A stretch of 64,000 bases of DNA. It comes from an uncultured Chloroflexia bacterium (GTDB lineage Bacteria > Chloroflexota > Limnocylindria > Limnocylindrales > CSP1-4). The stretch is taken from assembly GCA_963813305.1 (NCBI GenBank), contig CAWEYP010000006.1:31056-95055 (forward strand), read 5' to 3'. Position numbers and translations under genes: made by a program. Shown one piece after another: positions 7,301-40,968 of this stretch. Positions within the stretch are counted from its first letter, which is position 1. Each line of letters opens with the position of its first letter. The notes below the pieces were generated by a model, which was not told the DNA's origin, did not search any database, and saw only the letters and a program-made list of their open reading frames with translations.

Positions 7301-8001
7301 CGCCTGCCACCATCCCCTGGCCCTGGGCGCCAAGGGTGACCGCCGCCTCGCCGGTCAGCACGCCGGCCCGCAGCTGGAGCTCGAGTCCCGCAGCCGGATC
7401 CGAGAGGGTGCGGACGGCGTCGACCAGCTCGAGGGCCGCCCGGACGGCGCGCTCGGCATCGTCCTCGTGTGCCGTCGGCGCGCCCCAGACGGCCATCACG
7501 GCGTCCCCGATGAACTTCTCCACGTTGCCGCCGTAGCGCGCGATGACGTCGCGAGCGGCGTCGAAGTAGCGGCCGAGGAGCTCGCGCGTCGCCTCCGGGT
7601 CGCGGTCCGCGGAGAGCGCGGTGAAGCCGACGAGGTCGGCGAAGAGGACGCTGACGAGCCGGCGCTCGGCCGTGGCGACGCCCGCCCGGGCGCGGTCCTC
7701 GCCCCGACCCGCCGCCGGGCCTGCCGCGATGCCCGGTGCCCGGTGCGCCGGCCGTCCCCGGCGGGCCGCCCGCGTCGATCCGGCCGCCGCAGCTTCCGCA
7801 GAACTTGGCCCCGGCCTCGTTCGAGGCGCCGCAGCTCGGGCACGCGGCCGCCAGCGGGCCGCCGCATTCGAGGCAGAACCGTCGGCCGCCGGTGTTCGAG
7901 GTGCCGCAGGCGGGGCAGATCACGGGACGCTCCGTGGTGTGGTGCGCTGAGAGCGGGAGCGTACTCGACGGCGCCCCGTCGAGGGAACCGGGCGGGCCCA
8001 A
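4373..8001 (-). pseudogene. Double zinc ribbon - class III nucleotide cyclase - AAA/STAND ATPase - TPR signalling protein, two frame changes as assembled
   Basis: Three ORF pieces in three frames join seamlessly. 7174..8001 carries CPACG..CLECG..CPSCG..CGSCG. 5631..7523 carries VEKFIGDAVMAVWGAP...DLVNTASRLQ. 4373..7333 carries Walker A GQAGIGKTRLAWE and then about 650 aa of TPR-like helices. The shifts are at about 7740 and about 7190. Confidence 0.8.
7733..7746. repeat. 7-bp tandem duplication CCGGTGC x2 inside the cyclase gene; it causes the first frame change
   Basis: Read directly and consistent with the ORF-track peptide ...AGAPGTGH... Deleting one copy gives ...AGAPGIAAGPAAGRGEDRARAGVATAERRLVSVLFADLVGFT..., in frame with the cyclase core. 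Confidence 0.75.
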
Positions 8002-15948: not shown

Positions 15949-17588
15949 GCCGGTCCCTCCCCGCGGGTGAGCGCGAGCGTCACCGTCTGCCCGTCCGCGT
16001 GCTGTGTCACGTCCATGCGGTCCACCATGTGGCGGATCAGGAAGAGGCCCCATCCGCGCGGCTTCTGCAGCCCCGCGAGCTTCGCCTCGATGTCGGGCTC
16101 CTCGGCGTCGGAGATCGGCCCGGAGAGCGCTCGATCGGTGATCCGGACGAGGACCTCCAGGTCGGTCGCGCTCACCGCGACTGCCACCGGGATGTCGGGG
16201 CGGCCGGCGCTCCCGTACTCGATCGCGTTCATCGCCGCTTCGCTGACGGCGGTCTTGAGACGCTCGAGGCTGGCCGGCGGGATGTCGAGGCTCGCGACGG
16301 CCGCCGCGACGCGCTCGGCGACGTCGCGCTCGGTGCCGATCTCGCCCGGGATCGAGAAGGTCGCCAGGGTTCGCTCGTCGGTCTCTGCCGCGGCTTCCTG
16401 CGGCTCGTCCGCCAGCTCGGCGCGTCCCGCGGACGCGACGCGGCGAAGGGTCACGATCGTGAGGTCGTCCTCCTGGTCCCAGTCGCGGCCCGTGAAGCGC
16501 CACAGCCCCTCGACCAGGTCGTCCACCAGCTCGTTGCCGCTCCGCCCGGCGGCAAACGCGTCGCGCAGGCGCGGGAAGCCGAACATCGATCCGTCCGGGC
16601 CGTGCGCCTCGACGAAGCCGTCGGAGTAGAGGAGCATGTCGCCGCCTGCCGGCACCGTCATCTCCGCGGTGTCGTAGCGCATCCCCGGCATCAGACCGAG
16701 CGGCAGGCCGGTCGCCCGCACGTCCGCGACCTCGCCGCCGGACCGCACGTACGGCAGGTTGTGGCCGGCGTTCGCGAAGACGAAGCGACCGGTGGCCGGC
16801 TCGAGGATGCCGTAAAGGCAGGTCACGAACATCCTTGAGGGCATCTCCGGGACCAGGAGCTCGTTCACGCGCTCCAGGACGGCGCCGGGATCGTCGTAGC
16901 GGGGCGCCTCGCCGCGGATCGTCGACTGGGTGCGGGCCATGACGAGGGCCGCCGGGACGCCCTTGTCGGTCACGTCGCCCACGACGAGCCCGATGCGGCC
17001 GTCGGCCAGCGAGATGACGTCGTAGAAGTCGCCCCCGACGGCGCGGGCCGGGCCGTAGTAGGCGGCCACCTGCCAGTCGCGGAGCGCGGGAAGCTCCTTG
17101 GGCAGGAACTGCTGCTGGATCATCGTGGCCAGGCGGAGCTCCTGGTCGATCCGCTCCCGCTCGGCGGCTTCGGCCGCCTGCTCGCGGACCAGCTGGGCGA
17201 CCCGGATCGCGGGGGCCGCCTGCGCGGCGAGCGTCCCGAGCAGCCGCCGGTCGTCCGAGGAGTACTCCTGCTCGGACAGGCGCGGGCCGAGGTTCAGGGT
17301 CCCGATCAGCTCTCCCTGGGTTACGAGCGGGACGACCAGGGCGACGCCCGCGTCACGCAGCCGCTGGAGCGCATGCGACGCGAGGTCGAGCCTCGCGAGG
17401 TCGACCGGCCCGGGCGCGGACTGCAGGTAGGCGAACAGGGGATCGATCTCGGGGATCTCGACGGTGACGCCCGGCTGCTCGACGGGGACGGCGGAGGCGC
17501 GGGGGGCTGCCGCGGCAGGGACGGCGGGCGACGGCTCCGGCGTGGACCGGCCGGCGAGGCGACGGAACGGGCGGGTGAGCGCAGTCAT
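15945..17588 (-). CDS. GAF - PP2C (SpoIIE-type) phosphatase - HATPase_c (RsbW-like) fusion protein
   Basis: Lower part of ORF 15945..19058. It has a GAF-like segment (LVVPLVTQGELIGTLNLG), a PP2C segment (GGDFYDV...VVGDVTDKG...YSDG) and a C-terminal N-box-like segment (SEAAMNAIEYG...PRGWGLFLIRHMVD). GGAGGA lies 7 nt upstream of ATG 17588. Confidence 0.85.
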   Translation of the reverse strand: MTALTRPFRRLAGRSTPEPSPAVPAAAAPRASAVPVEQPGVTVEIPEIDPLFAYLQSAPGPVDLARLDLASHALQRLRDAGVALVVPLVTQGELIGTLNLGPRLSEQEYSSDDRRLLGTLAAQAAPAIRVAQLVREQAAEAAERERIDQELRLATMIQQQFLPKELPALRDWQVAAYYGPARAVGGDFYDVISLADGRIGLVVGDVTDKGVPAALVMARTQSTIRGEAPRYDDPGAVLERVNELLVPEMPSRMFVTCLYGILEPATGRFVFANAGHNLPYVRSGGEVADVRATGLPLGLMPGMRYDTAEMTVPAGGDMLLYSDGFVEAHGPDGSMFGFPRLRDAFAAGRSGNELVDDLVEGLWRFTGRDWDQEDDLTIVTLRRVASAGRAELADEPQEAAAETDERTLATFSIPGEIGTERDVAERVAAAVASLDIPPASLERLKTAVSEAAMNAIEYGSAGRPDIPVAVAVSATDLEVLVRITDRALSGPISDAEEPDIEAKLAGLQKPRGWGLFLIRHMVDRMDVTQHADGQTVTLALTRGEGPA

Positions 17589-17595
17589 CGGGGTG

Positions 17596-17629
17596 ATCCT
17601 CCGGGGCGAGCGTCCGGACATCGTTACGG
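17596..17629 (-). promoter_or_regulatory. Copy A of the conserved upstream element ATCCTC-N20-CGTTACGG (plus-strand reading), in front of the PP2C/kinase gene
   Basis: Read directly. It has the same architecture and the same distance to the start codon as copies at 20058-20091 and 25691-25724. It contains two CGTNNNN-type heptamers 11 nt apart (17611 and 17622). Confidence 0.4.
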
Positions 17630-18790
17630 ATTTCGCGATATCGGATGCACGGGAACGGGCTCCCGGATCCAGATCCCGGCGGAGCTGGGCCGGAGCGCCG
17701 CTCCGACGGTGCCCCTGATGTCCGACTCCAGACCCGCGAGGTCCACCTGGTCGCGCAGACGCTCGGCGAAGGCGGCAGCCGTCCGCTCGCCGTCGTATCG
17801 CGCCCGGTCGAAGCGGCGGTCGACGGCTCGCTGGACGCGTCGGCGCAGTGGCTGGAAGAGCGCGAACGCCACGAGTGTCGACGCGGCCACCGCGGGGGTC
17901 TGGTCCTGGGTGAACCCTGCCAGCACCGTCTGGAGGGCGATCACGCCACCTGCGAACACCGCGATGAGCAACCCGCTCACCACCGCCCAGCCGATCGTCC
18001 GGCTGATGAGCCGGTCGATCTCGAAGAGCCGGTAGCGCAGGATCGCGATCCCGATGGCGACCGGGAGCGCGAACATGGCGAGGATCGCCACGCTGCTCAG
18101 GGCGTCGGCCAGCTCGGGGTTCACGGTGTAGAGGACGAGCGCCACCGGAAGGACGACGGCCCCGACGCCGACGACCGCTACGAACCACTTGACCTGCTGG
18201 CGCTGCACCGGATCGCCCCGCCGGAATCGAAGCCAGACCGCGACCACGGCACCGCCGAAGCTCACGAGCGTCGCGAACAGCACGAACGGCTCGAGGGCGG
18301 CGAGGCCGGGGATCGTCGCGGACGCCCCGCCGGGCGACGGACCAAGGATCCCGCCCAGGGTCCACGCGACCATGTTGGCGATGGCGATCCACACAATCCA
18401 CCGGAAGCGGCGCGACAGCAGGCGTCCGTCCGGGAAGACGAGCGGGACCCCGATGAGGGCGATCACGAAGGGGTAGATGAACAGCGTGTCCCCGACGAGC
18501 CGGGCCAGGCCCGAGCCGGGCCACGGTGGCACCTGGAGCGCGCCGAGGTCGGCATACGTCCCGATGACGATGGCAGCGACCAGCACGGTCCCGGCGGCGA
18601 GCAGCAGGACGCCGATGGGGTTCGCGGGAACCCGGGTGCACAGGAGCGCTCCGACCCCCGCAAATGACGCGATCCCGATGGCGTAGAGGACGGCAGCGCC
18701 AACGTCGCCTGCCGGGTCGAACATGCTGGCGACGAGGAAGGCGACGATGTCCAGGCTCGCGATCCCCCAGGCGACACGGCCTCGCCGCAT
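17624..18790 (-). CDS. Sensor-like polytopic membrane protein lacking a kinase domain (paralogue 1)
   Basis: Lower 388 aa of ORF 17624..19681 (MRRGRVAWGIASL...). It has an FPDGRLLSRRFRW loop and the C-terminal conserved block LRYRLFEIDRLISRTIGW...LFQPLRRRVQRAVDRRFDRARYD...LRDQVDL. No HisKA/HATPase is present. Confidence 0.75.
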   Translation of the reverse strand: MRRGRVAWGIASLDIVAFLVASMFDPAGDVGAAVLYAIGIASFAGVGALLCTRVPANPIGVLLLAAGTVLVAAIVIGTYADLGALQVPPWPGSGLARLVGDTLFIYPFVIALIGVPLVFPDGRLLSRRFRWIVWIAIANMVAWTLGGILGPSPGGASATIPGLAALEPFVLFATLVSFGGAVVAVWLRFRRGDPVQRQQVKWFVAVVGVGAVVLPVALVLYTVNPELADALSSVAILAMFALPVAIGIAILRYRLFEIDRLISRTIGWAVVSGLLIAVFAGGVIALQTVLAGFTQDQTPAVAASTLVAFALFQPLRRRVQRAVDRRFDRARYDGERTAAAFAERLRDQVDLAGLESDIRGTVGAALRPSSAGIWIREPVPVHPISRNP

Positions 18791-18804
18791 CGGCCGACGC
18801 TCCT

Positions 18805-20031
18805 TCACCGAACGCCCTCGCCGCCCCGCAGCCAGAGGGTCGCTGCGACCGGGCGCACAGCCTCGTCGGCAGTCTCCATGAGCGCCCTTCGCAGCGCGGC
18901 GAGGTCCACCTCGTCGCGCAAGTGCGCGCCGAAGGCATCGATCGCCCGCTGCGCGTCCACGCGGGCCCGGTTGAAGCGACGGTCCACGGCCCGCTGGACG
19001 CGCCCGCGCAGCGGCTGGAACAGCGCCGCCGCCACCAGCGTGGAGGCGGCGACGGCAAGCGTGTTGTTCCCGGTCGCCGGCTCGAGCGCGAGCTGCAGCC
19101 CGACGACGACCGCGGCGAACACGGCCGCCAGGATGGCCGTCACGACGATCCAGCCGATCGTCCGGCTGATGATCCGGTCGATCTCGTACAGGCGATACCG
19201 CAGGACCGCGATCCCGATCGCCAGCCCGAGGCAGCCGAACGCGACCCCGACAGCCGCGTCGCCCAGGTCGCTGTAGCGGCCCGGGCCGGCGAATACCCCG
19301 TAGAGGGTCATCGCCAGCCCCACCACCACCGCGCCCCCGACGACCCACTTGAGCTGGGCACGCTCCACGAGCCCGCCGCGCCGCCATCGCCCCGCGAGGG
19401 ACACGACGGAGAGCAGCACGGTGGCCACGAGGAGGCCGTAGGCAGTCGTCCAGACGGCGTCGCCCGGGTAGGCGGATGAGCCGAACGGGCTGTCGATCGT
19501 GGGATAGAAGGGCAGGGGACCCGGCCGCAGGGCCACGGAGAGGGTCACCACGGCGACGAGCAGCACCTGGACACCCGGCAGGAGGCGCCACCGGCGGGAC
19601 GGGAGGCGGCCGTCCGGAAAGCGGAGGAAGAACGTCCCGACGAGCAGGAACATGGGCCCGTCGAGGAGGGTCACGAGCCACGCGAGCAGCGGCGCACCGG
19701 GTAGCGTGCCGGGGAGCCGGATGTAGGCGTCGGCAGCAAGGTAGAAGGCGAGGAGGCTCGCGAATGCCAGGAGGATGGGACCGATCCGGTTGCCGGGTCG
19801 CCGCTCGACGATGAGCAGCCCGATGACCGCGTAGAGGACTGCCTCGCCTCCGTAGAGGACCAGGCTCAGGGTCGCCGGCTTGCCGAGTGCCGTCGAGGCG
19901 CCTCCCGCCGTCGGCGCGGCGACGGCCCAGACGCCGGCGGCCACGGCGAGCGCCACCACCGCGCGGGCCGGCCAGCTCCGGACTCGCGTCGACGCCAGCG
20001 TCGGCGTGGTGGCCGCGGACCGCAGGTTCAT
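18805..20031 (-). CDS. Sensor-like polytopic membrane protein lacking a kinase domain (paralogue 2)
   Basis: ORF 18805..20031 is intact. It has FPDGRLPSRRWRL and LRYRLYEIDRIISRTIGW...LFQPLRGRVQRAVDRRFNRARVD...LRDEVDL. Confidence 0.75.
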   Translation of the reverse strand: MNLRSAATTPTLASTRVRSWPARAVVALAVAAGVWAVAAPTAGGASTALGKPATLSLVLYGGEAVLYAVIGLLIVERRPGNRIGPILLAFASLLAFYLAADAYIRLPGTLPGAPLLAWLVTLLDGPMFLLVGTFFLRFPDGRLPSRRWRLLPGVQVLLVAVVTLSVALRPGPLPFYPTIDSPFGSSAYPGDAVWTTAYGLLVATVLLSVVSLAGRWRRGGLVERAQLKWVVGGAVVVGLAMTLYGVFAGPGRYSDLGDAAVGVAFGCLGLAIGIAVLRYRLYEIDRIISRTIGWIVVTAILAAVFAAVVVGLQLALEPATGNNTLAVAASTLVAAALFQPLRGRVQRAVDRRFNRARVDAQRAIDAFGAHLRDEVDLAALRRALMETADEAVRPVAATLWLRGGEGVR

Positions 20032-20057
20032 CGCGATCGCTGCGAAGTCATGGGCGC

Positions 20058-20091
20058 ATCCTCGCGGAGTGGCGTTCGCGGAACGTTACGG
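20058..20091 (-). promoter_or_regulatory. Copy C of the ATCCTC-N20-CGTTACGG element, in the divergent region between paralogue 2 and the SARP gene
   Basis: Read directly. The heptamers CGTTCGC (20073) and CGTTACG (20084) are 11 nt apart. A further CGTTACG lies at 20113-20119. A 7-codon uORF (20051..20028) follows on the minus strand. Confidence 0.4.
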
Positions 20092-20124
20092 CATCGGTCC
20101 GATTCCGACTACCGTTACGTCTCG

Positions 20125-23013
20125 ATGTTCCATCACTCCGAACCCTCCGTCGAGATCCGGCTCCTCGGCCCCGTCGAGGTTCTGGTCGACGGCGCGCCGC
20201 TCGCCGTCGACACCCGCAAGGCCGTCGCCCTGCTGGCCCATCTCGCCGTGGTTGGCCGGCCAGTCGACCGCGACACGCTGGCGGCCCTCCTCTGGCCGGA
20301 GGCGGACGGGGTCGACGCCCGGGGTGCCTTCCGCCGCACGCTCTCCGTGCTCAACGCGGGCCTCGGTGGGACTGGCCTGCGCATCGATCGCCGCGTGGTC
20401 GGGCTGGATGGTGCGACAGCCGGTGTTGACATCCTCCGGTTCCGGGCCGCGCTCGGGCGGGCCCGCGCTCACCGGCACGGGCCGGACGAGCCGTGCGGGA
20501 CATGTCTCGTCGATCTCGACGAGGCCGCGGCGCTCGATCGCGGGGAGTTCATGGCGGGCTTCTCCCTCCGGGACAGCGAGGAGTGGGACGCCTGGCAGCT
20601 CGGGGAGACGGAGGCGCACCGGCGCGACCTCGCGGGGGTGCTGGAGCGCCTCGCGCGGATGCGGGCGGCGGCAGGTGATCACGCTGGCGCGATCGACGCC
20701 GCCCGTCGCTGGGTCAGCCTGGACCCACTCCACGAACCCGCCCAGCGCGTGGTGATCACCGCGCTCGCCCGGGCCGGCGAGACCGGCGCGGCGATCCGCC
20801 AGTACCGCGACGCCGTGGCCGCGCTCGACCGCGAGCTGGGCGTCGCGCCGCTCGCGGAGACGACCGCGCTCTACGAGACGATCCGGGACGGCACCTTTGC
20901 CGCCGCGGTCGCCCCCTTCGCCGCCGCGGTCGCCCACGGCGCCGTCGGGGCCGCTGCCCCGCCGGCGGTCACGCACGGTCGCCCGCCCGCTCCGGCGCGG
21001 CTGCCGTTCGTCGGGCGCGACGGCGAGATGGCCGCGCTGCTCGCCGCCCGCCGCGAGGCCGCGCCGGACGGCCGCCTGGCGATCCTCGAGGGCGCGCCGG
21101 GGATCGGCAAGACCCGGCTGGCCCTGGAGCTCGCCGACGCGGTTCGGGCGGCCGGCGGCGTCGTGCTCGCCGCGACGTGCTACCGCGGGGAGGCGGGCAT
21201 CGCCTTCGAGGGGACTGCCGACCTCCTTCGCGACGGCCTGTCCCTGCCCGACGCGACCGAGCGCCTGGCGTCGATCCCGGAGGCCGCCCGCCTGGAGGCC
21301 GCCCGCCTCGTGCCGGCGCTGCTCCCGACCGGGTGGTCGCCGCCCCCGGCGGCAGCCGACCCCGGGGCCCGCGCCCGCCTCCTCGACGCGCTCGCCGCCG
21401 TCCTGACCGCCCTGGTCGCCGGTCCCGTGCCGGGCGTCATCGTCGTGGACGACCTCCAGTGGGCGGACACCTCGACGCTGGAGGCGCTCGGCTACCTCGC
21501 TCGCCGGCCGGCCGGCCGCTCGCTGCTGATGCTTCTCGCCGTGCGCCGCGAGGACCTCGACGAGCCCGGACGCGCCGCGGTCGGATCGCTCGAGCGCGTG
21601 AGCGATGCCGTCGTCGTGCGCCTGGCCGGGCTGGACGACACGGCGGTCGCCGAGCTGGTGGCGGCCGCCGGCGGCACGCTGGACGCGGCCGCCCTGGCGG
21701 TCGAGTCGGAGGGCCTCCCCTTGTTCGTGGTGGAGGCGCTCGCGGAGCCGCGGTCGGCAGGCGTGCCGCCGGCCGGCGTCCGGGCGCTGCTGGAGGAGCG
21801 GATCGAGCGCGCCGGCGAGGTTGCCGCGCAGGTGTTGGCCGCCGCCGCGATCCTTGGCCGCGCGGCGGATGCGGCGACGCTCCGCGGCACCGGCGGGCGG
21901 ACGGAGGACGAGACCGTCGCCGCCCTCGAGGAGCTGATGGCGCGGGGGATCGTCCGCGAGGGCGTGGCACCCGACGGGTCCGAGCCGACCTACGGCATCG
22001 CCCATGCCGCAATGCGCGATGCGGTCGTGGAGCGGATCAGCCTCGCCCGGCGCCGGCTGCTCCACCGACGGGCCGCCGAGACGCTGCGGGCGGTGCCAGC
22101 CCGGGCCCTCGACCTGGGGCGCCTCGCACGGATCGCAGCCCACGAGCGCGCGGCGGGGCGCGACCGCGAGGCGGCGCTGGCCTACCGCGATGCCGGCGAC
22201 CTCGCCCGCTCGCTCTACGCCAACCGCGAGGCGATCGACCACTTCGAGGCCGCGCTGGCTCTCGGCCACGAGGACGCCTCCCTGATCCACGAGGCACTGG
22301 GCGAGCTGCGGACCCGCACCGGCGACTACGCCGGCGCCGTCGCATCGCTCGAGCGGGCGGCTGCCACGGCCGCCGGAACAGGACGCCTTGCCACGATCGA
22401 GCGCCGCCTGGCGCTGGCGCATCAGCGCGTGGGTGACCACGGTGCCGCGGCGAGCCACCTCGTCGCCGCGCTCGCGCTCCTCGAGCCCGGGGATGAATCC
22501 CGGTCGCGGCTGGTCGCGGAGCAGGCCGTCGTGGCGCTCGGCGCCGGCGATCTCGAGGCTGCCCGCGAGCGGGCCCTGGATGTCCTCGCCCGGGGCGGGG
22601 ACGACCCGGTCGCCGCGGCCCATGCGCACCGTGTTCTCGGGCTCCTCGCGACGGCCGAGTCGCGGCGGGACGATGCCGAGGCCTCGCTGGTCGCCTCCCT
22701 CGCGCTGGCCCACCGGGCGGACGATCCGGGACTCGTCATCGCGGCCCACAATGCGCTGGCCCTCGTCGCGGCGGCCGTGGGGGAGACGCCCGCCGCGCTC
22801 GAACACGGCCTGGCCGCTCTTGTCGAGGCGCGACGCACGGGCGACCTCCACCTCGAGGCCGCCGTGGAGAGCAACCTCGCCGATGTCCTGCACGCGGCCG
22901 GGCGGGATGGCGAGTCGCGCGAGCACCAGCTGCGCGCGGTCGCGCTGTTCGCCGAGGTCGGCGGCGCCCCCGGTGAGCTGCAGCCCGAGATCTGGAAGCT
23001 CAGCGCCTGGTAG
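20125..23013 (+). CDS. SARP/AfsR-family regulator (winged-helix + BTAD + NB-ARC/AAA ATPase + TPR)
   Basis: ORF 20050..23013; the likely start is ATG 20125 (MFHHSEPSVEIRLLGPVEVLVDG). It has BTAD-like DEAAALDRGEFMAGF...RWVSLDPLHEPAQRVVITALARAGETGAAIRQYR, Walker A GAPGIGKTRL, and a TPR-like C-terminus. Confidence 0.85.
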   Translation: MFHHSEPSVEIRLLGPVEVLVDGAPLAVDTRKAVALLAHLAVVGRPVDRDTLAALLWPEADGVDARGAFRRTLSVLNAGLGGTGLRIDRRVVGLDGATAGVDILRFRAALGRARAHRHGPDEPCGTCLVDLDEAAALDRGEFMAGFSLRDSEEWDAWQLGETEAHRRDLAGVLERLARMRAAAGDHAGAIDAARRWVSLDPLHEPAQRVVITALARAGETGAAIRQYRDAVAALDRELGVAPLAETTALYETIRDGTFAAAVAPFAAAVAHGAVGAAAPPAVTHGRPPAPARLPFVGRDGEMAALLAARREAAPDGRLAILEGAPGIGKTRLALELADAVRAAGGVVLAATCYRGEAGIAFEGTADLLRDGLSLPDATERLASIPEAARLEAARLVPALLPTGWSPPPAAADPGARARLLDALAAVLTALVAGPVPGVIVVDDLQWADTSTLEALGYLARRPAGRSLLMLLAVRREDLDEPGRAAVGSLERVSDAVVVRLAGLDDTAVAELVAAAGGTLDAAALAVESEGLPLFVVEALAEPRSAGVPPAGVRALLEERIERAGEVAAQVLAAAAILGRAADAATLRGTGGRTEDETVAALEELMARGIVREGVAPDGSEPTYGIAHAAMRDAVVERISLARRRLLHRRAAETLRAVPARALDLGRLARIAAHERAAGRDREAALAYRDAGDLARSLYANREAIDHFEAALALGHEDASLIHEALGELRTRTGDYAGAVASLERAAATAAGTGRLATIERRLALAHQRVGDHGAAASHLVAALALLEPGDESRSRLVAEQAVVALGAGDLEAARERALDVLARGGDDPVAAAHAHRVLGLLATAESRRDDAEASLVASLALAHRADDPGLVIAAHNALALVAAAVGETPAALEHGLAALVEARRTGDLHLEAAVESNLADVLHAAGRDGESREHQLRAVALFAEVGGAPGELQPEIWKLSAW

Positions 23014-24223
23014 CGTCGACGCCTGGGTCGTGCCGCGCGACGTGGCCGTCGGGCCGGAGCCAGATCCCAACGTGACCCGGCTCGAGCGTCCGGGCGAGGG
23101 CGCCGCGCACCTGGTCCAGGACCGCGCCGACGTCGACCTCGTCGCGCAGGGTCGTCTCCAGGGCACGCGCCTCGTGGTCGACGTCGTACCGGGCGCGGTG
23201 GAAGCGACGGTCGACGGCACGCTGGACCCGCGAGCGGACTGGCTGGAAGAGGCCCGCGGCCAGCAGCGTGGACGCCGCCACCGCCAGTGTGTCACCTCCA
23301 GCCACCTCGGCCAGGAGGCCGCCGAGGACCACGGTGCTCGTCGCGACGACCGCGACCAGGACGCCGGTCACGACCGCGTAGCCGATGGTTCGCGACACGA
23401 TCCGGTCGATCTCGTAGAGGCGGTAGCGGAGCACGGCGACCCCCACCGCCACCGGGAGCGCGACGACACCCGTGCCCAGGAGCGCAGCGGCAACCCAATA
23501 ACCGGCATCGCCGGCGACGAGCGCGACCGGGATCGCGATGATGACCAGGGAGATGGCGGCACCGAGCCAGCGCAGCTGGAGGCGCGTGGTGCGATCCGCG
23601 TGGACGAGGCGGTCGACGAAGGCGCTGATCGACAGGCCGACGAGCAGGACGACGATTGCGATGGTGGGGATCCAGAGCGAATCCCAGGATGACGTGTCAA
23701 GGCCGTCCAGGTGGATCGGCTTCCAGGCGATCCAGGCGCCGATCTGCACGATCTCCGGTCGTAGCGCGACGACGGCCATCAGGATCGCTACGACGACCGC
23801 CAGCGCCGGCACGGCCCACCAGGCGCGTCGCGATGGCCGTCCATCCGGGAAGAGGACGAGCAGGATCGGGCCCGCCATCAACAGGGCGACCGTCGGCGCG
23901 ATGCCGGAGATCCAGATCGCGAGCGCGCCCGCGGGGCCGAGCCCGTCGCCGCTCCGGGCGTCGATGAGCGCCACGGCGCGGCTCGCCAGACCCGCCGCTG
24001 CCACGACACCCGCCGCAAGGCACAGGCGCCCGATCGGATTCGCGGGACGGTGATACACGATGAGAAGGCCAACGAGGCCATAGCCGATCGCCGACGCTGC
24101 CGCGACCGTGGGAAGTCCCGGGTCCGGGAAGGCGCCCGACGCCAGCTCCGCCCACACACCTGCAGCCGCGGCGACCACGATGGCCGCCGCCGCCGCCGCG
24201 AAGAAGGCGGCGCGCCTCCTCAC
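23000..24223 (-). CDS. Sensor-like polytopic membrane protein lacking a kinase domain (paralogue 3)
   Basis: Lower 407 aa of ORF 23000..24805. It has FPDGRPSRRAWW and LRYRLYEIDRIVSRTIGY...LFQPVRSRVQRAVDRRFHRARYD...LRDEVDV. The GTG start overlaps the upstream stop (GTGA at 24220-24223). The 3' end overlaps the SARP 3' end by 14 nt. Confidence 0.75.
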   Translation of the reverse strand: MRRRAAFFAAAAAAIVVAAAAGVWAELASGAFPDPGLPTVAAASAIGYGLVGLLIVYHRPANPIGRLCLAAGVVAAAGLASRAVALIDARSGDGLGPAGALAIWISGIAPTVALLMAGPILLVLFPDGRPSRRAWWAVPALAVVVAILMAVVALRPEIVQIGAWIAWKPIHLDGLDTSSWDSLWIPTIAIVVLLVGLSISAFVDRLVHADRTTRLQLRWLGAAISLVIIAIPVALVAGDAGYWVAAALLGTGVVALPVAVGVAVLRYRLYEIDRIVSRTIGYAVVTGVLVAVVATSTVVLGGLLAEVAGGDTLAVAASTLLAAGLFQPVRSRVQRAVDRRFHRARYDVDHEARALETTLRDEVDVGAVLDQVRGALARTLEPGHVGIWLRPDGHVARHDPGVDATRR

Positions 24224-25683
24224 GGAGAGCCGAGCGTGAAGGGCCGACCCGGCGTGATCGCGAGCGCCGGGTCGTCCCCGGTGAGGCAGACCGGACCGAA
24301 CGTCCCGGCCGGGGCGTCGGCGAAGGCGAACGACGCGTTCCCGGCCTCCGCGGCGAGCCACGCGATCCCGGTCACCCAGTCCGGCTGCGGCTGGCTGGGG
24401 TCGTAGTCCGCGACGAGGGCGAGAAGATCGTCCCAGGTCTTCGGCGCCCGCACCCCGGCGATCAGCATCGCGACTGGTGCCGCACTCCCGTTCTGCAGTC
24501 GGACGGCGTACAGGCCGGGCGCGGACGGCGCGGCCGAGATCGTGCAGACAGCCCCGTCCCAGGTCACGGAGATCTCGCCGACCGGCGCGAACGGGGTCCT
24601 GCGAGGGCCGCCACGCCGGAGCGCCGCGAGCAGCGCCGCCTTGGTGCGGCTTGCGTCGGCGCCGACGGCGGCGCGGATTCGCCGGCCGGCGGGGTCCCTG
24701 GCGACCTGGCCCGCGTTGGGCCGTTCGGTCACGGCGCGTACGGTCGCGTCCTCCCACGTGACCAGGGTGGGATCGAGAAGGGTTAGCGCGGTCAGCGAGT
24801 CCCACAGGTACTGGCCCTCGCCGATCAGGAAGGGATTGCGGGCGTACATCTCGTACACGAGGTCGGCGCCCGCCGCCGCATGGTCGGCCCCGAGCTCGTC
24901 GAGGATGTCGGCGGGCATCGGAACGTCGTTCGTGGCGTCGAGGGGCACGAGCGTCACCGGCACGCCCGTCGCAAGGACGGCTGCCACGGACGCCGGGTCG
25001 GCGCCGAAGTTGTACTCGACGGGGACCTCGAGCGGCGCACCGTCGGCCCAGATGTTCCCCTTGGCGTCGAGCGTGCCGCCCATGGCGTAGATCCCGGCGA
25101 TCCTGTCGACGAGGCCCGGGTCTGCCTCCAGTGCGTCCTTGAGGTTGGTCCAGGGGCCGAGGGCGAAGATGAGCGGGGGCGACGGCGATCCGGCCACTGC
25201 TTCGGCGATCACGCTCACGGCATCGCCGCCGGCGCTCGTGCCAGGGGCCGGGGTGAACGTGATGCCGTAGCCTGCATCGGCGCCGGCCCGCCAGTCGTCA
25301 GGCCAGGGGTAGGCTTCCGGGCCGGCCGCCTCGCGCCCGCAGCCGATCGGGATCCCGCGTGCCCCGAGCTCGGCCAACAGGTTGCGCAGGTTGCGGAGTC
25401 CGGGTCCGCAATGGACCTCGCCCGTCCCGGGGATCGTGATCGCCCGGACGTCGAGGCTCGGGTTGCCCAGGAGAACGGCGATCGCCGTGATGTCGTCACC
25501 CGCCAGGTCGGTGTCGATGATCACGGCACGGGAAGCCGGCGAGGGACCTGGACCGAAGGAGGCACCCGACGACGGGCTTGCCGCTGGGACGGCAATCGAC
25601 GACGAGGGACCGGCCGAACCGCACGCGGCGACGGCAAGGGTGCCGCCGACGACCAGGGCGACTGTGCGGAGTGACGTCTTCAT
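24220..25683 (-). CDS. Lipoprotein inosine-uridine-preferring nucleoside hydrolase family protein with an extra C-terminal ~130-aa domain (copy 2)
   Basis: ORF 24220..25743; the likely start is M21 (MKTSLRTVALVVGGTLAVAAC, a lipobox). It has the IIDTDLAGDD nucleoside hydrolase motif and an uncharacterised two-Cys C-terminal domain. Confidence 0.8.
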   Translation of the reverse strand: MKTSLRTVALVVGGTLAVAACGSAGPSSSIAVPAASPSSGASFGPGPSPASRAVIIDTDLAGDDITAIAVLLGNPSLDVRAITIPGTGEVHCGPGLRNLRNLLAELGARGIPIGCGREAAGPEAYPWPDDWRAGADAGYGITFTPAPGTSAGGDAVSVIAEAVAGSPSPPLIFALGPWTNLKDALEADPGLVDRIAGIYAMGGTLDAKGNIWADGAPLEVPVEYNFGADPASVAAVLATGVPVTLVPLDATNDVPMPADILDELGADHAAAGADLVYEMYARNPFLIGEGQYLWDSLTALTLLDPTLVTWEDATVRAVTERPNAGQVARDPAGRRIRAAVGADASRTKAALLAALRRGGPRRTPFAPVGEISVTWDGAVCTISAAPSAPGLYAVRLQNGSAAPVAMLIAGVRAPKTWDDLLALVADYDPSQPQPDWVTGIAWLAAEAGNASFAFADAPAGTFGPVCLTGDDPALAITPGRPFTLGSP

Positions 25684-25690
25684 GCACCGG

Positions 25691-25724
25691 ATCCTCCCCC
25701 GGCAGCGGTACGACTCCGTTACGG
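25691..25724 (-). promoter_or_regulatory. Copy B of the ATCCTC-N20-CGTTACGG element, between the two nucleoside hydrolase genes
   Basis: Read directly. The heptamers CGGTACG (25706) and CGTTACG (25717) are 11 nt apart. The distance to ATG 25683 is identical to that of copy A to ATG 17588. Confidence 0.4.
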
Positions 25725-25773
25725 ACCGGGGCTGACGCCACATCCGGTCGGTCGCCGCCGCCGCGCGCCGCGG

Positions 25774-27264
25774 TCAGGGAGCGCCGACGTCGAAGGGCGC
25801 CCCGACGACGAGCGCGACGTCCGGCCACTCCCCGGTGGCGCAGACGGCGCCGAAGGTCCCGGCCGGGATCTCGGCGAAGGCGAGGGCGGTGCCCCCTGCG
25901 ACCGCGTCAACGGCCGCGATCCCGATCACCCATTCCGGGGTCGGCTGCGAGGGATCGAGGTTGGCAAGGAGCTCGAGGATGTCGGCCCACGTCTTCGGTG
26001 GCCGGGGGCCCCCGACGAGGAGGCTCACCACCGCCGACGTCCGGTTCTCGATCGAGATCTCGTGCATGCCTGGCGTCGTCGGCACCGTGACGGCGGCGCA
26101 GGAGGTCCCGTCCCAGGTGACGGCGAGCCGTCCCACGGGCGTGAACGGGTGCTCCCGGGGCCCGCCGCGGCGGAGCCCGGCCAGGAGGGCGGCCTCGACC
26201 CGGACAGGATCGGCCGCGGCCGCGTACCGGATGGAGCGTCCGGCGGGGTCGCGCCCGATCCTGCCGGCGTCCGGCCGCGCGGTCGTGACGCTGACCGTCG
26301 CGTCCTGCCAGCTGGCGACCGCCGGATCCAGCAGGGCGACCGCGGCGGTCTGATCCCAGAGGAACTGGCCGTCGCCCGCGAGGAACGGCGACCGGGCGTA
26401 CATCTCGTGGACGAGGTCGGTGCCGGCGGCGCCGTGGTCGGCCTCGAGGGCGGCGACGAAGGACGGGCTGACGGGGACGTCGTCGGTCGCGTCGAGCGGG
26501 ACGAGCGTGACCGGGACGTCGGTTGCCAGGACCGCTGCCACCGCCGCGGGATCCGCCCCGAAGTTGAACTCGACCGGGATGGCGAGCTCCTTCCCGCCGG
26601 CCCAGACGTTGCCCCTGGCGTCCAGCGTCCCGCCCATGGCGTGGATCCCCGCCAGCCGGCCGGGCAGGGTCGTGTCCGCCGCGAAGGCCTCGGCGAGATT
26701 GGTCCACGGGCCGAGGGCGACGATCAGCGGCGGCGTGGGCGACGCCGCCACCGCGTCGGCGATGACCGCCGCCGCGTCGCCACCGGGGCTGGTGGCCGGC
26801 GCCGGCACGAACGTGAGCCCGTAGGCCTGGTCGGTCAACGCACGCCAGTCCTCCGGGAACGGGTAGGCCTCGGGGCCGGCCCCGGCATGCCCGCAGCCGA
26901 TCGGGATCTCGCGCCGGCCGAGATCGGCGATGAGGTTGCGCAGGTTCCGCAGGCCCGGGCCGCAGCGCCCGAGGCCGGTCCTCGGCACCGTGATCGCACG
27001 GACGTCGACGGAGGGGTCGCGCAGGAGGACCGCCAGGGCGGTCAGGTCATCGGCGCCCAGGTCGGTGTCGATGATCACGGCGCGCGACGAGGCCGGTGGA
27101 GTCGGTGCGGCGCTGGTGTCCGGGCCGACGCTGGTGCCGGGTTCCGGGGTCGTGGTGCGCGGCGTCGGAGTCGCCGTCCCGCATCCGGCGAGCGCCAGCG
27201 TCGCCGCGACGAGCAGTCGGGCGAGGCGGTGGTCCGGCGTCACAGCGGCCACGGACAGGTACAT
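25774..27264 (-). CDS. Lipoprotein nucleoside hydrolase family protein with the same extra C-terminal domain (copy 1)
   Basis: Lower part of ORF 25774..27621, starting MYLSVAAVTPDHRLARLLVAATLALAGC (lipobox). It has the IIDTDLGADD motif and is collinear with copy 2 over its full length. Confidence 0.8.
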   Translation of the reverse strand: MYLSVAAVTPDHRLARLLVAATLALAGCGTATPTPRTTTPEPGTSVGPDTSAAPTPPASSRAVIIDTDLGADDLTALAVLLRDPSVDVRAITVPRTGLGRCGPGLRNLRNLIADLGRREIPIGCGHAGAGPEAYPFPEDWRALTDQAYGLTFVPAPATSPGGDAAAVIADAVAASPTPPLIVALGPWTNLAEAFAADTTLPGRLAGIHAMGGTLDARGNVWAGGKELAIPVEFNFGADPAAVAAVLATDVPVTLVPLDATDDVPVSPSFVAALEADHGAAGTDLVHEMYARSPFLAGDGQFLWDQTAAVALLDPAVASWQDATVSVTTARPDAGRIGRDPAGRSIRYAAAADPVRVEAALLAGLRRGGPREHPFTPVGRLAVTWDGTSCAAVTVPTTPGMHEISIENRTSAVVSLLVGGPRPPKTWADILELLANLDPSQPTPEWVIGIAAVDAVAGGTALAFAEIPAGTFGAVCATGEWPDVALVVGAPFDVGAP

Positions 27265-28669
27265 CAGTCGGCAGAGGTCGCCCCGGTGAAGCGCCACGAC
27301 GCGATCCGGAGGGCCGGCACCAGCACCGCCCCCAGCTCGCCCCGGAGCAGGCGCCGCTCCACCGAGACCGCCTCCACGCCCGCCAGCGCGTCCAGGTAGG
27401 ACTGCGTGAAGCGGAGGTTGCGGACCGGCCCCACCACCTCGCCGTCGCGCACCAGGAAGGTGCCGTCGCGGGTCATCCCCGTGATGACGGCGAGCTTCGC
27501 GTGGACCACGTTCGTGTAGTGGAAGCGCGTGACGAGCAGGCCGTCGCCGAGCCCCGCGACCAGCTCCGTCCGGGGCGTCGCGCCCGCGGCCATCGCCGCG
27601 TGGAGCGGGAACGGGCCCCATGGGTTGGGCGCCGGCAGGCCGTGGCCGGTGGACGTCGTGCCGGCCCGCGCCGCGGTCGCCGCGTCGTGGACGATCTCGC
27701 GGCAGACGCCGGCCTCGACCATCACGACCCGGCGCGTCGGGACGCCTTCGTAGTCGAACGAGGCCGGCATCCCGGACGGGTCACGCGCGTCGTCGACGAG
27801 CGTGACGAGCTCGCTCCCGATCCGCCTTCCCCGGCTCGAAGAACGAACGGCCCTCCTGCACCGCGAGGCCCGAGAAGCCGGTGAAGCCCAGGTTGTCCAG
27901 CAGGTCCGTGACGGCGTACTCCTCCAGCACGACGGGGTAGTCGCCGGGCGGCAGGTCGACGGGCCGGGCAGAGCGGCGCGCCTTCTCGGCGGCCTCGCTG
28001 CCGACGGCCGCCGCGTCGATCCGGGTGGCGTCGACCGACGCCGCATCCGCGTAGCCCGTGCCGTCGTCGGGGACCCATCGTCACCACGAGGAGCCGGGCG
28101 CTCGTCCTGGATTCGGCGGCGCGGATTCCCCGGGTGGTCGCGAGGGCGACGGTCTCCACTCCGGTCGAGAACGATCCGAAGGCGGTCACGCCGGCGCGAT
28201 CGGCGGCGTCGACGACGGCGCGCACGCCGTCCGCGCGCAGCTCCGGCGACGCCTCGGCGGTGCCGGCGGCGAAGGCTCCGGCCACCGGCTCGACCGGGCG
28301 CGCTCCCGGCAGGCCGGCCCAGTCCGGCGTCTCCTCGGCGACGGCGGCGATCCGCCCCGCGTTCCGGGCCAGGCGTCGCAGCGCATCCCCGTCGGTCCGG
28401 CCGGACGACGCCACGCCGATCCGCTTCCCGCGGACGAAGCGCAGGTTGATCCGGACGTCGCGCTCGGAGACGTTCTGGTGGATCTCCGAGTTGGCGAAGC
28501 GGGTGAGCGCCTCGTCGCCGGTCGCCACGAGGATCTCGGCCTCGGTGGCGCCCTCGGCCTCTGCCAGCCGCAGGACGAGCTCGGCGAGCTCCAGCGCCTC
28601 CTCGGGCGCGAACGTGGCAGTGGCCTGCTCCGGTCCTCCGGCGGTCCTCGTCGGTCGTCCGGCGCTCAC
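27264..28669 (-). pseudogene. pmbA: PmbA/TldE metalloprotease-family protein, 2 frame changes as assembled
   Basis: The N-terminus is in ORF 27722..28669 (ILVATGDEALTRFANSEIHQNV...). The middle (DDGTGYADAASVDATRIDAAAVGSEAAEKA...LAVQEGRSFFEPGK) is in a third frame. The C-terminus is in ORF 27264..28046 (RIGSELVTLVDDARDP...FHYTNVVH...). The shifts are near 28075 and 27830. Confidence 0.8.
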
Positions 28670-30122
28670 GACATCACCCCGACCTCGACGTCGCGGAAGC
28701 GGGCGCCCCGAGCAGCCGTGGCCGACGTGCCCGCCCTGCCCGGGCTCCCCCTTGCCACAGTTCGCGCGTCGCCCAGCATCACGTAGCTCGAGGCGTCGCC
28801 GATCGCGTCGCAGTTCCCCCAGAACTCGGGCGTGATGCCCGTGTACGTGGCGTTGCGGTAGAGCTGCCCGAGCTTGCCGCCCCTGATCTCGTAGGCCAGC
28901 TCGGTCGCGAACTGGAAGTTGAGGCGCCGGTCGTCGATCGACCAGCTTCGGTTCGTCTCGAGGTAGAGGCCGTCGTCGGTGTCGGCGATGATGTCGTCGA
29001 GGCTCATCCCGGGCTTCGGCTGCAGGTTGATGTTGGTCATCCGGATGAGCGGGATCCGGTTCCAGCCGTCGGCCCGCATGGCGCCCGCCGCAGCGGCGCC
29101 CGATGCGCGGGCGCCGTCTCGCGGCTGGAGAGGTAGCCGACGAAGATGCCGCTCCTGCACGAGCGGCACGCGCTGGGCGGCGACGCCCTCGTCGTCCCAG
29201 CCGAAGGTGCCCAGCCCGCCCGGCGTCGTGGCGTCGGCGACGATGTCGACGATCTCCGAGCCGTAGCGGAAGCCCGCGTCTCGAGCTTGTCCGTCGTCAG
29301 GAAGCTCGTGCCCGCGTAGGCTGGCCTCCGTCCCGAAGACCCGGTCGAGCTCGGTCGGGTGGCCGCAGCTCTCGTGGATCTGCAGGTAGAGCTGCGACGG
29401 ATCCAGGACGATCGTGCGCCGGCCGGGCGGCAGCAGGGGCGCCGTCAGCAGCTGGACGGCCTCCTCGCGAGCCGCTCGGCCGTCCCGGCCAGGTCCAGCG
29501 ATCGGACGTGCTCGTAGCCCGCGCCGCGCCAGGCGCCGCCGGCGTCGGGGTAGCTGCGCCGCTGGTGCTCGTCGCCGTCGACCGCGTTGGCCTCGATGGC
29601 GGCTCCCACGTGGGTGATGACCTGCTCGGTGAGAGCTGCCGTCACTGGCCGCGAACGTCTTCCATTCGCGCAAGGCGCCGTAGTCGGAATCGGTGAAGGC
29701 GATGCCGGGCACCGCGGTCATGGCCTGCTCGGCCGCGAGGAGGTCGCCGACCGTCTGGTCGATGGGCATGGCGAAGGGATCCTCGGCGATCGGCGTCTCG
29801 AAGCGCCCACGCGCCGGCGGCCGATCGTCGAGGACGACCCGGTGGCGCAGCGCCGTGGCGCTGGCCCGGGCGATCCGGACCGCCAGCGGCCGCGACACGG
29901 TCGGCCTCGGCCGGGGTCAGCCGGTGCGACGAGGCGAATCCCCAGGCGCCGTCGACGAGGACGCGCACGCCGAAGCCCTCCGTCTCGTGGCTGAGGACCG
30001 CCAGCCAGGCGACCGCCCTTGACGTCGATCGACTCCTCCTGCCGGCGGACGACGCGAACGTCGGCATAGGACGCCCCGCGAACCCGGGCGGTGTCGAGCG
30101 CCCGGTCGGTGATCTCGTGCAT
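28666..30122 (-). pseudogene. tldD: TldD metalloprotease, about 9-10 frame changes as assembled
   Basis: Pieces come from ORFs 29718..30149, 29642..30067, 28666..29898 and 29445..29645. It starts MHEITDRALDTARVRGASYADVRV and has the HExxxH motif in LYLQIHESCGHPTELD. The C-terminal NCGKGEPGQ..V.HGC motif is only visible after two compensating shifts (about 28775 and 28715). Confidence 0.8.
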
Positions 30123-39420: not shown

Positions 39421-39655
39421 CGTGGCGTTGTAGTTGGCATCGGCGGCCTTGGTGGCAGTGACCGAGCAGGTCCCGGTGCCCGAGACGACGTGGAGCTTGC
39501 CCGAGACGATCGAGCAGGCGGTCGAGGCGCCCTCGTCGAAGGTGACCGCGCCGCTCCCGCTGCCGCCGCTGGTGGTGATCGTCGCGTCGGCGGCCCCGTA
39601 GGTCGCGCTCGCGGGTCCGGTGACCGTCAGGGTCGCCTGGTCGGCCTTGTTGACG
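39421..39655. repeat. Partial third copy (~235 bp) of the near-identical intragenic repeat
   Basis: It aligns almost base-for-base with 40451-40685 and 41271-41505, for example GGCGCCCTCGTCGAAGGTGACCGCGCCGCTCCCGCTGCCGCCGCTGGTGGTGATCGTCGCGTCGGCGGCCCCGTAGGTCGCGCTCGCGGGTCCGGTGACCGTCAGGGTCGCCTGGTCGGCCTTGTTGAC. Confidence 0.8.
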
Positions 39656-40416
39656 GTGACCGGGAAGGGAGCCGAGGTCGTGGCGCTGTAGTTGGCGTCG
39701 GCGGCCCTCGTGGCGGTGATCGTGCAGGTGCCGGCGGCGACGATGGTGACGCTGGCACTGGCGCTCGCCGTGCAGACCGAGGGGGTGCTCGAGGTGAAGG
39801 TGAGGGCGCCGGTCCCCGAGCCGCCGGTGGTGGTCGGGCCGAAGGGGGCGTCGCCGTACGTCCTGGTCGCGGGTCCGGTGATCGCCAGGGTCGCCTGGGC
39901 CGCCTTCTGCACGATGACCGGTTCGGCGGCCGATGTCGTGGCGGTGTAGTTGGCGTCGGCGGCCTTGGTGGCGGTGACCGAGCAGGTCCCGGTCCCGGCG
40001 GTGATCGTGAGCTGATCCGTGGAGACGGAGCAGGCCGTCGAGGCGCCGTCGCTGTAGGTGACCGCGCCGAGGCCGCCGCCGCCGCTCGTGGTCAGCGTCT
40101 GGACCGAGCCGTAGGCGGCCGGGCTGCTGGCGTTGACCGTCAGGGTCGCCTGGGCCGCCTTGTTGACCGTGACCGAGAAGGGGACCGAGGTCGTGGCGTT
40201 GTAGTTCGCGTCGGCGGCCCTGGTGGCGGTGACCGAGCAGGTGCCCGTGCCCGAGAGGACGTGGAGCTGGCCGGCCACGATCGAGCAGGCGGTCGAGGCG
40301 CCCGCGTCGAAGGTGACCACGCCGGTCCCGCTGCCGCCGCTGGTGGTGATCGCCTGGTCGGCGGCCGCGAAGGTCGCGCTCGCGGGTCCGGTGACCGCCA
40401 GGGTCACCTGCGTCGC

Positions 40417-40968
40417 CTTCTGCACGGTGACCGGGAAGGGGGCTGAGGTCGTGGCGTTGTGGTTGGCGTCGGCGGCCTTGGTGGCGGTGACCGAGCAGGT
40501 CCCGGTGCCCGAGAGGACGTGGAGCTTGCCGCAAGACGATCGAGCAGGCGGTCGAGGCGCCCTCGTCGAAGGTGACCGCGCCGCTCCCGCTGCCGCCGCT
40601 GGTGGTGATCGTCGCGTCGGCGGCCCCGTAGGTCGCGCTCGCGGGTCCGGTGACCGTCAGGGTCGCCTGGTCGGCCTTGTTGACCACCTGGCCGCCGGAC
40701 AGCGTCCCGCTGCTGTCGTCGAAGTCGACGAGGTCGTCACTGGCGTAGTCGGCCGTGATGGCGCGGGTGCCTGCCGCGAGGCCCGAGGTCGAGACGGTGG
40801 CCTCGCCGCCGACCAGCGGCTGGGCCGTGTCGAGGTCCACGCCGTCGACCTTGAACTGGACCGTGCCGGTGGGCGTGCCGACCCCGGCGGTGACCGTCGC
40901 GCTGAACGTGACGCTGGTGCCGTACGTCGACGGGTTGGCCGAGGAGGCGACCGCGGTGGTGGTGACCT
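40417..40968. repeat. ~550-bp intragenic direct repeat, copy B
   Basis: It is near-identical to 41238-41787 (offset about 821 bp). The few differences include the indels that break the frame in one copy or the other. Confidence 0.8.

Follow-up and report, generated by a model that had tools for sequence, protein, structure and literature searches.

SARPs, the family of regulators named after antibiotic regulatory proteins of Streptomyces, have been called exclusive to actinobacteria, where they control clusters for antibiotics and other secondary metabolites (PMC10972967). At their target promoters, direct repeats follow each other at intervals of 11 or 22 bp, and 8 bp separate the 3' repeat from the -10 element; in the 22-bp afs box, which spans -40 to -19 and overlaps the -35 element, each 11-bp unit is bound by one protomer (PMC10936776). 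We have analysed a 64-kb stretch of DNA from an uncultured Chloroflexia bacterium (contig CAWEYP010000006.1; hereafter the window, whose numbering is used throughout), in which three copies of a short element face the starts of genes clustered around the gene for a large SARP (genes are lettered as in Table 1). It is likely, on our reading of the sequence, that each copy is a complete activator-dependent promoter, composed of two 11-bp-phased sites for the adjacent SARP, a -10 element and an ATG 6-7 nt beyond it. The SARP box and the large SARP are of a kind already known; what appears to be new is the regulator clade, the motif, the regulon (membrane paralogues, a PP2C/anti-sigma kinase cassette and a nucleoside hydrolase) and the presence of all these in Chloroflexota-like genomes. 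In the literature on this motif, or on a link between SARPs and partner switching, we found no description of such a system.

The described system to which the locus is best compared is AfsR at the afsS promoter of Streptomyces coelicolor (PMC10936776). Like AfsR, the regulator of the window is a large SARP with a SARP domain, a NOD and TPRs, and its candidate box is 22 bp long, consists of two 11-bp units, lies at -40 to -19 (counted from the ATG as +1), coincides in part with the -35 element or takes its place, and is followed by a suboptimal -10 element; as for AfsR, two protomers are expected side by side. The systems differ in their targets, which in the window are membrane proteins, the PP2C/anti-sigma kinase cassette and a nucleoside hydrolase, whereas afsS is a regulator of antibiotic synthesis; they differ also in the Chloroflexota-like host, in the apparently leaderless targets and in the single heptamer that is common to two divergent promoters. 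The repeats of the afs box have a PHO-box-like sequence, unrelated to the CGTAACG and CCGGACG heptamers described below. Small SARPs (ActII-ORF4, DnrI, RedD) share with this locus the heptamers at 11-bp periodicity next to the -10 element and the position of the regulator beside its targets, but they consist of the DNA-binding domain and BTAD only and serve biosynthetic clusters through near-identical repeats, often three of them, whereas the two heptamers of the window differ at 3 of 7 positions. The boxes of PhoB/PhoP-type regulators (OmpR family) are similar in being 7+4 bp direct repeats that replace the -35 element at a fixed distance from the -10 element; the conserved cluster studied here, however, is without a response regulator, and the SARP beside the boxes is of the STAND type. 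EmbR of Mycobacterium tuberculosis, to which the N-terminal part of the regulator is similar, has a C-terminal FHA domain instead of NOD and TPRs, and other targets.

The element and its conservation

A pattern scan of the window returns three exact copies of ATCCTC-N20-CGTTACGG, at 17596-17629, 20058-20091 and 25691-25724, facing minus-strand ATG codons at 17588, 20051 and 25683 (the ends of the plus-strand CAT). ATCCTC starts at 17596, 20058 and 25691 and CGTTACGG at 17622, 20084 and 25717, the distance from A to C being 26 nt in all three cases. On the minus strand, which is the coding strand, the element reads CGTAACG-N4-(CCGGACG/GCGAACG/CGTACCG)-N9-GAGGAT-N6/7-ATG, and the two heptamers start 11 nt apart (17628/17617, 20090/20079 and 25723/25712), as they do at about 46 sites in other genomes. 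The coordinates, the 26-nt distance and a fourth CGTTACG at 20113-20119 had all been given in the original prediction, made from the letters of the window, and were found correct on re-reading. The 11-nt-phased second heptamers that it had proposed are also real: CCGGACG and GCGAACG are kept in orthologous promoters, and the third, CGTACCG, is weak, its counterpart in L201 (L-numbers denote the related genomes or loci compared) being CGCAGCG, which is no nearer to the consensus.

With respect to chance, the composite pattern is matched three times against an expectation of 0.00 and does not occur in any of 100 dinucleotide-preserving shuffles. For CGTTACG alone the observed number is 4 and the expected number 2.96, and at least 4 copies are present in 32 of 100 shuffles; this count is not significant. 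The claim that the element is unlikely to arise by chance is thus sustained for the composite pattern, while the back-of-envelope argument from the number of CGTTACG copies was weaker than had been thought. The signal resides in spacing, strand and location: all four CGTTACG copies lie on one strand, in non-coding spacers and within 8 kb, and three of them are at a fixed distance from the hexamer. A weight matrix built from 30 sites, all in genomes other than the window, gives the three sites scores of 42.1, 30.6 and 19.8 bits, the next best site of the window scoring 11.4; in 100 simulated windows the maximum averaged 9.3 and was never higher than 17.8. In this matrix both heptamers are preceded by C or T.

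The window has a G+C content of 74%. The closest orthologues of protein G (87-97% identity) are found in metagenome-assembled genomes (MAGs) labelled uncultured Chloroflexia, and the more distant ones in Candidatus Limnocylindrales (phylum Chloroflexota); the Streptomyces framing in which the element had first been placed was therefore off, the closest relatives being Chloroflexota MAGs. For the comparison, loci were fetched at first by similarity to the regulator and then, against circularity, by similarity to protein G alone, and up to 22 kb were inspected around each cluster. Among the regulator-fetched loci, CGTTACG is found just upstream of the regulator homologue in many genomes. Read on the coding strand of the targets, the widened motif is yCGTAACG-aTty-CCGGACG-N9-hexamer. 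This box stands immediately before G in all 15 of the loci fetched with protein G, and beside the SARP orthologue in all 14 of the loci that reach that gene, so that the element is indeed kept before orthologous operons, a check which the original prediction had suggested. With a loose regular expression, 52 sites come up in the 474 kb of the 24 protein-ascertained loci, where 5.15 would be expected and simulations gave at most 9. A genome-wide scan with CGTAACGNNNNCCGGACG gave, among the matches listed, mostly chance matches inside genes, and only its hits in cluster contexts were used.

According to a tblastn map of the cluster, the SARP gene is divergent from 1-6 tandem membrane paralogues, which are followed by G, one or two STAS genes and I. 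The cluster is found in Chloroflexia MAGs and in MAGs of Actinomycetota (Rubrobacteraceae, Solirubrobacteraceae, Gaiellales, Acidimicrobiia and others); the loci fetched with protein G are Chloroflexota MAGs, and the Actinomycetota classes come from the SARP-fetched and motif-scan loci. The Rubrobacteraceae MAG (L001) lacks the membrane genes, and its G-STAS-I cassette is found downstream of the SARP gene. Overall, the box travels with the orthologues of the regulator and of its neighbours across about 30 genomes and two phyla. Support for the third site of the window comes from L201, which in the region downstream of the SARP gene has a DNA identity of 80-85% to the window; in L201 a hydrolase remnant is preceded by CGTAACG-N20-GAGGAT-N6-ATG.

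Extra boxes are present before other small genes (L208 16972, L209 15276, L210 15381, L211 15500, L213 15310, L009 4005, L156 840, L102 1092). Their products include an SRPBCC-like protein as well as 140-aa membrane proteins and a secreted protein, so that the regulon differs from one lineage to another.

The element had been described as preceding three operon starts. This is correct for the copy at 20058-20091, the only one of the three in a divergent intergenic region. The copy at 17596 is inside a 35-nt gap behind the membrane gene F and that at 25691 inside a 90-nt gap behind nucleoside hydrolase A; both lie behind co-directional genes, which suggests internal promoters rather than plain operon starts.

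The adjacent regulator and its own proposed promoter

In Pfam the regulator matches BTAD (E = 2.7e-19), AAA_16 (E = 1.4e-21) and TPR_12 (E = 9e-10), while Trans_reg_C does not reach the threshold of E = 1e-3. Its residues 8-253 align to residues 10-254 of EmbR (2FEZ, E = 5.5e-8), which is the best match of a solved structure to the N-terminal 250 residues, and to residues 45-280 of the AfsR SARP (8HVR). The N-terminal alignments, taken together with the domains, mark it as a bona fide large SARP of the AfsR type, with a predicted OmpR-type DNA-binding domain followed by BTAD, AAA_16/NOD and TPRs. Restriction to actinobacteria and control of secondary metabolism are not seen here, the closest relatives being Chloroflexia and Ca. 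Limnocylindrales MAGs and the targets non-biosynthetic; this association is usual in the family without being part of the structural definition of a large SARP. Among 34 aligned homologues, the box-bearing proteins keep a DTRKA motif and, as predicted recognition helix, ARGA[LF]RRTLSxL, and most of the more distant box-less homologues have different recognition helices; this co-occurrence of helix and box fits the SARP as the cognate binder.

The SARP gene has a promoter-like arrangement of its own. On the plus strand, CGTTACG (20084-20090) is followed by N19, TACCGT (20110-20115), N9 and the ATG at 20125, and CGTTACG-N19-TA[CT][CG]GT-N6-9-start precedes the SARP orthologue in the window and in 16 other genomes; in L208-L211 and L213 it contains also a full second heptamer, CGGAACG or TGGAACG. 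Since CGT(A/T)ACG is palindromic around its centre, the heptamer can be used by both divergent promoters. A single heptamer is in fact common to the SARP promoter, as its upstream heptamer, and to the divergent membrane-gene promoter in the window, L089, L195 and L201-L202, and in L008 and L208-L213 the two divergent promoters have separate heptamers. This architecture accounts for the fourth copy of CGTTACG, which is made up of the end of the -10 hexamer TACCGT and the TACG that follows it; TAC(C/G)GTTACG recurs at this place in many genomes. The heptamer-like sequence over the -10 element and discriminator (20110-20119, plus strand) is 29 nt from the shared heptamer and out of helical phase with it, and may be an autorepression site that provides negative autoregulation.

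The same promoter architecture could also be read by some other regulator encoded elsewhere, for example a response regulator of the OmpR/PhoB family, whose members likewise bind 11-bp-phased direct repeats in place of the -35 element. The combination of repeats and -10 element at this geometry is common to activators of the PhoB/PhoP type, and our view extends to 22 kb at most around each cluster. Nonetheless, we consider another reader of the box unlikely: on the locus maps the SARP is the sole DNA-binding protein conserved in the cluster, 14 of 14 loci have the box next to the SARP gene, 17 genomes (counting the window) have it in the promoter of that gene, and the recognition helix of the SARP tracks the presence of the box.

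The hexamer and the start of transcription

ATCCTC had originally been taken as the complement of a Shine-Dalgarno (SD) sequence, GGAGGAT, and this part of the prediction finds no support. At the fixed N9 distance from the box, the hexamers before orthologues of G are GAGGAT, GAAGAT, GAGTAT, GAGTCT, CAGGCT, CACGCT, TAGAAC, TAGAAA, TAGAAG, TACAAC, TACAAA, TACAAG, TAAAAG, TACGGT and TAAAAT, and GACGAT and CACGAT are found at the same position in orthologous promoters. Position 2 is an A in 45 of 52 sites, and most of the remaining sites are chance matches inside genes. The distance between box and hexamer is constant, whereas that between hexamer and start codon is bimodal (5-9 or 18-43 nt): an ATG lies 5-9 nt past the hexamer in 37 of 52 sites (most commonly 6 nt), against a background of 4.8%, and the leaders of 18-43 nt have an SD of their own, of the GGAGG or AAGGAG type, before the ATG (for example in L001, L006 4630, L008 9909, L087, L102 1092, L136 6891 and L156 840). 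A complement of the anti-SD sequence, kept in the orthologues at a fixed distance from the start codon, was thus not found. The varied, non-SD hexamers, their distance fixed to the box and the separate SDs of the long leaders all argue that the hexamer behaves as a -10 element, which is more likely than an SD, and that the three genes of the window, like most of their orthologues, are probably leaderless. For the annotation of such genes this corrects a trap, because a GGAGGAT close to an ATG is here probably the -10 element of a leaderless gene.

One may still ask whether GGAGGAT could be an SD in a 5' untranslated region, with CCGTAACG and its partner as an operator or RNA element in a transcript whose promoter is located upstream. 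GGAGG does occur 8-9 nt before the ATG at all three sites of the window, and no terminator separates G and B from the co-directional genes ahead of them, so that read-through mRNA is likely. We regard this explanation as distinctly improbable, however, in view of the orthologous hexamers, which are not SD-like and whose position is tied to the box, of the long leaders with a separate SD, and of the absence of both a conserved RNA structure and a credible Rfam match. A structured RNA element or riboswitch was rejected on the basis of the RNAalifold consensus of 14 sequences, which has an energy of -0.65 kcal/mol and no compensatory (covarying) pairs. The sole hit in Rfam, the CC1840 small RNA (31.8 bits for a gathering threshold of 50, E = 0.55), falls at 20335-20428, inside the SARP gene and not at the elements.

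Alternatively, the copies might be promoters of an alternative sigma factor, perhaps under the PP2C/RsbW/STAS partner switch of the cluster itself, with CGTAACG or CCGGACG as the -35 element. It is true that G has among its domains an anti-sigma kinase resembling RsbW, that a STAS antagonist is encoded behind it, and that the sigma factor of a partner-switching operon often regulates that same operon. On the other hand, the spacers between -35 and -10 elements in known sigma families are 12-19 nt long, and those between heptamer and hexamer (20 nt for CGTAACG, 9 nt for CCGGACG) fall outside this range; moreover, the conserved cluster has no sigma gene and the motif is unlike the GTTT/GGGTAT or AAC/CGT consensus, all of which makes such a sigma factor very improbable. 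CGTAACG as a -10 element, or as a -35 element of the extracytoplasmic function type, was rejected as well: there is no conserved partner at a compatible spacing, and the invariant A sits in the downstream hexamer. A promoter scan found no sigma-70-type -35/-10 pair in 17400-26000, as expected for activator-dependent promoters. Finally, while the window does contain paralogues (two hydrolases, three membrane proteins) and the CGTTACG count alone is not significant, a chance similarity or functionless relic of local duplication is hardly credible and is excluded by the conservation data, since the conserved blocks are separated by unrelated spacers, shuffles never contain the composite pattern, and genomes with protein identities of only 35-65% still have the same blocks and spacings.

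Returning to the activator-dependent promoter that we favour, CGTAACG and CCGGACG (or a variant), starting 11 bp apart, would occupy the place of the -35 element, with the -10 hexamer GAGGAT 9 bp past the second heptamer and the ATG 6-7 nt further; transcription would then start at or next to the start codon and produce a leaderless mRNA. Two SARP protomers would sit next to each other on the repeats and bring in RNA polymerase, in the manner of AfsR at afsS. In this way the SARP would switch on (i) the mini-ORF (open reading frame) together with E and F, which encode membrane proteins, (ii) G, the GAF-PP2C-RsbW-like gene, along with the STAS gene and I behind it, and (iii) nucleoside hydrolase B with membrane paralogue C; from its own leaderless promoter, which uses the same heptamer (20084-20090) in the opposite direction, it would also control itself. 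SARP binding, activation rather than repression, and the transcription start sites are what we infer from these arrangements. The original idea of a SARP operator of 11-nt heptamers that links the regulator to three units gains support from the co-conservation, from the published SARP geometry and from the assignment of the regulator as a large SARP, and would extend to the gene of the regulator itself.

The agreement with the published geometry is close. If the A of the ATG at 17588 is assumed to be +1, GAGGAT is at -13 to -8, CCGGACG at -29 to -23 and CGTAACG at -40 to -34; the 22-bp box is then at -40 to -19, identical to the afs box, and sites with a 6-nt gap are shifted by 1. In this framing of the heptamers, the gap between the second heptamer and the -10 element is 9 bp at the target promoters and 8 bp at the SARP's own.

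Several points weigh against this promoter model. The gap of 9 bp at the target promoters is not the canonical 8 bp; CGTAACG and CCGGACG agree at 4 of 7 positions (C1, A5, C6, G7), and are thus weaker direct repeats than those of the classical SARP boxes; and the second heptamer of the third box is degenerate. In the lineage of the window the hexamers begin with G or C rather than T, several end in C, and by sigma-70 standards they are poor -10 elements. GGAGGAT, a good SD at 8-9 nt before the ATG, could function as such on read-through transcripts from F or A, and the co-occurrence of recognition helix and box may be mere orthology. Lastly, the sequencing runs found to hold the window are DNA metagenomes only, with at most 11% of the sampled words, and no RNA runs were found among them.

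If the model is correct, the locus represents a large SARP whose operator can be read from the sequence and is conserved in uncultured Chloroflexota and in deep actinobacterial lineages, a SARP, furthermore, that appears to be connected with a phosphatase/anti-sigma-kinase switch as well as with membrane proteins in multiple copies. The fixed distances between box, -10 element and start provide a compact, testable promoter model for organisms without genetics, and the motif yCGTAACG-aTty-CCGGACG-N9-nAnnAT can be used to define the regulon in metagenomes. A bolder proposal, which we put forward only tentatively and consider rather doubtful, is that of an ancient signalling module of Chloroflexota and several deep classes of Actinomycetota, in which a STAND regulator of the AfsR type directly fires the leaderless promoters of itself, of membrane-protein arrays and of a GAF-PP2C-RsbW/STAS cassette; one bound assembly on the shared heptamer could then drive transcription both ways, and the SARP mechanism would predate actinomycete antibiotic regulation and not be tied to it.

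Genes and minor features of the region

Gene models were derived from GC3 (G+C at third codon positions) frame analysis and Pfam, with further family searches in NCBIfam and PDB; the features of the region are collected in Table 1.

Table 1. Coordinates of the promoter elements and genes around the SARP gene; functional labels of the elements are predicted.
Feature	Position	Strand	Remarks
Upstream heptamer CGTAACG, gene G promoter	17622-17628	-	Before 15 of 15 protein-ascertained G orthologues
Downstream heptamer CCGGACG, gene G promoter	17611-17617	-	CCGGACG or CCGAACG there in most G-orthologue promoters
Putative -10 hexamer GAGGAT, gene G	17596-17601	-	9 nt past downstream heptamer, 7 nt before ATG
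Upstream/shared quasi-palindromic heptamer	20084-20090	both	CGTAACG for the minus-strand promoter, CGTTACG for the plus-strand SARP promoter
Downstream heptamer GCGAACG, mini-ORF/E promoter	20073-20079	-	GCGAACG kept in L201-L203 and L208-L213
Putative -10 hexamer GAGGAT, mini-ORF/E	20058-20063	-	6 nt before ATG 20051; orthologous CAGGAT, GAACAT, GAGCAT, GACGAT
Putative -10 hexamer TACCGT, SARP gene	20110-20115	+	9 nt before ATG 20125; overlaps the fourth CGTTACG (20113-20119)
Upstream heptamer CGTAACG, hydrolase B promoter	25717-25723	-	Same architecture in L201
Degenerate downstream heptamer CGTACCG, hydrolase B promoter	25706-25712	-	Weakest of the three boxes, 19.8 bits
Putative -10 hexamer GAGGAT, hydrolase B	25691-25696	-	7 nt before ATG 25683
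Gene A	27264-25774	-	Nucleoside hydrolase
Gene B	25683-24220	-	Nucleoside hydrolase, lipoprotein; followed by membrane paralogue C (candidate target unit B-C, 23000-25683)
Gene C	about 24223-23000	-	Membrane paralogue
Regulator (SARP)	20125-23013	+	BTAD + AAA_16 + TPR
Mini-ORF	20051-20028	-	7 codons, MTSQRSR*; its TGA overlaps the ATG of E (ATGA)
Gene E	20031-18805	-	Membrane paralogue
Gene F	18808-17624	-	Membrane paralogue
Gene G	17588-15945	-	GAF-PP2C(SpoIIE)-HATPase_c_2 (RsbW-like kinase) fusion; Pfam, NCBIfam
Gene H	15588-15241	-	STAS protein
Gene I	15213-14461	-	250 aa, no family match

The N-terminus of G, MTALTRPFRRL, is conserved in L089, L149, L156, L201 and L202. The stop codon TAA of gene F (17624-17626, minus strand) falls within the CGTAACG of the next promoter, as it does in L201 and L202; TAA stops are rare at a G+C content of 74%. 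Protein I has no match in Pfam, NCBIfam and PDB, save for a chance-level match to thioredoxin (E = 0.38). The membrane paralogues are likewise without a match in these three databases. They are proteins of about 400 aa with a conserved C-terminal LRYRLYEIDR...AVDRRF.RARYD (17624-20031 and 23000-24223 in the window; L003, L118, L173, L204, L214 and others), and with 1-6 tandem copies per cluster they form an expanding family.

The mini-ORF may be a translationally coupled leader peptide. Its place is taken in L208-L211 and L213 by a leaderless mini-ORF of 9 codons ending in VP*, and in L203, L204 and L215 it is the membrane protein itself that begins at the leaderless start. At the other end of the SARP gene (plus strand), its 3' end and that of membrane paralogue C (minus strand) overlap convergently by 14 nt (23000-23013). 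Hydrolases A and B are tandem lipoprotein paralogues, of which only B has a box; the start of A is in an ATGA overlap with the stop of the preceding gene (27255-27270, minus strand), and a PmbA/TldD-family gene lies further upstream (28666-29916).

Elsewhere in the window, a second large STAND-type protein of 993 aa is encoded at 4373-7354 (minus strand), with AAA_16 but no detected BTAD and no box nearby. A UPF0182 protein at 47966-50771 (plus strand) extends over two overlapping ORFs, which cover profile positions 98-452 and 450-770; this split suggests a frameshift, explained either by a pseudogene or by an error of assembly. Three near-identical strings of 40 nt (39631, 40661 and 41481) correspond to repeated Ig-like (Big_3_5) modules in a very large surface protein (about 37129-42435, minus strand), which also contains MBG_2 and lectin-like domains.

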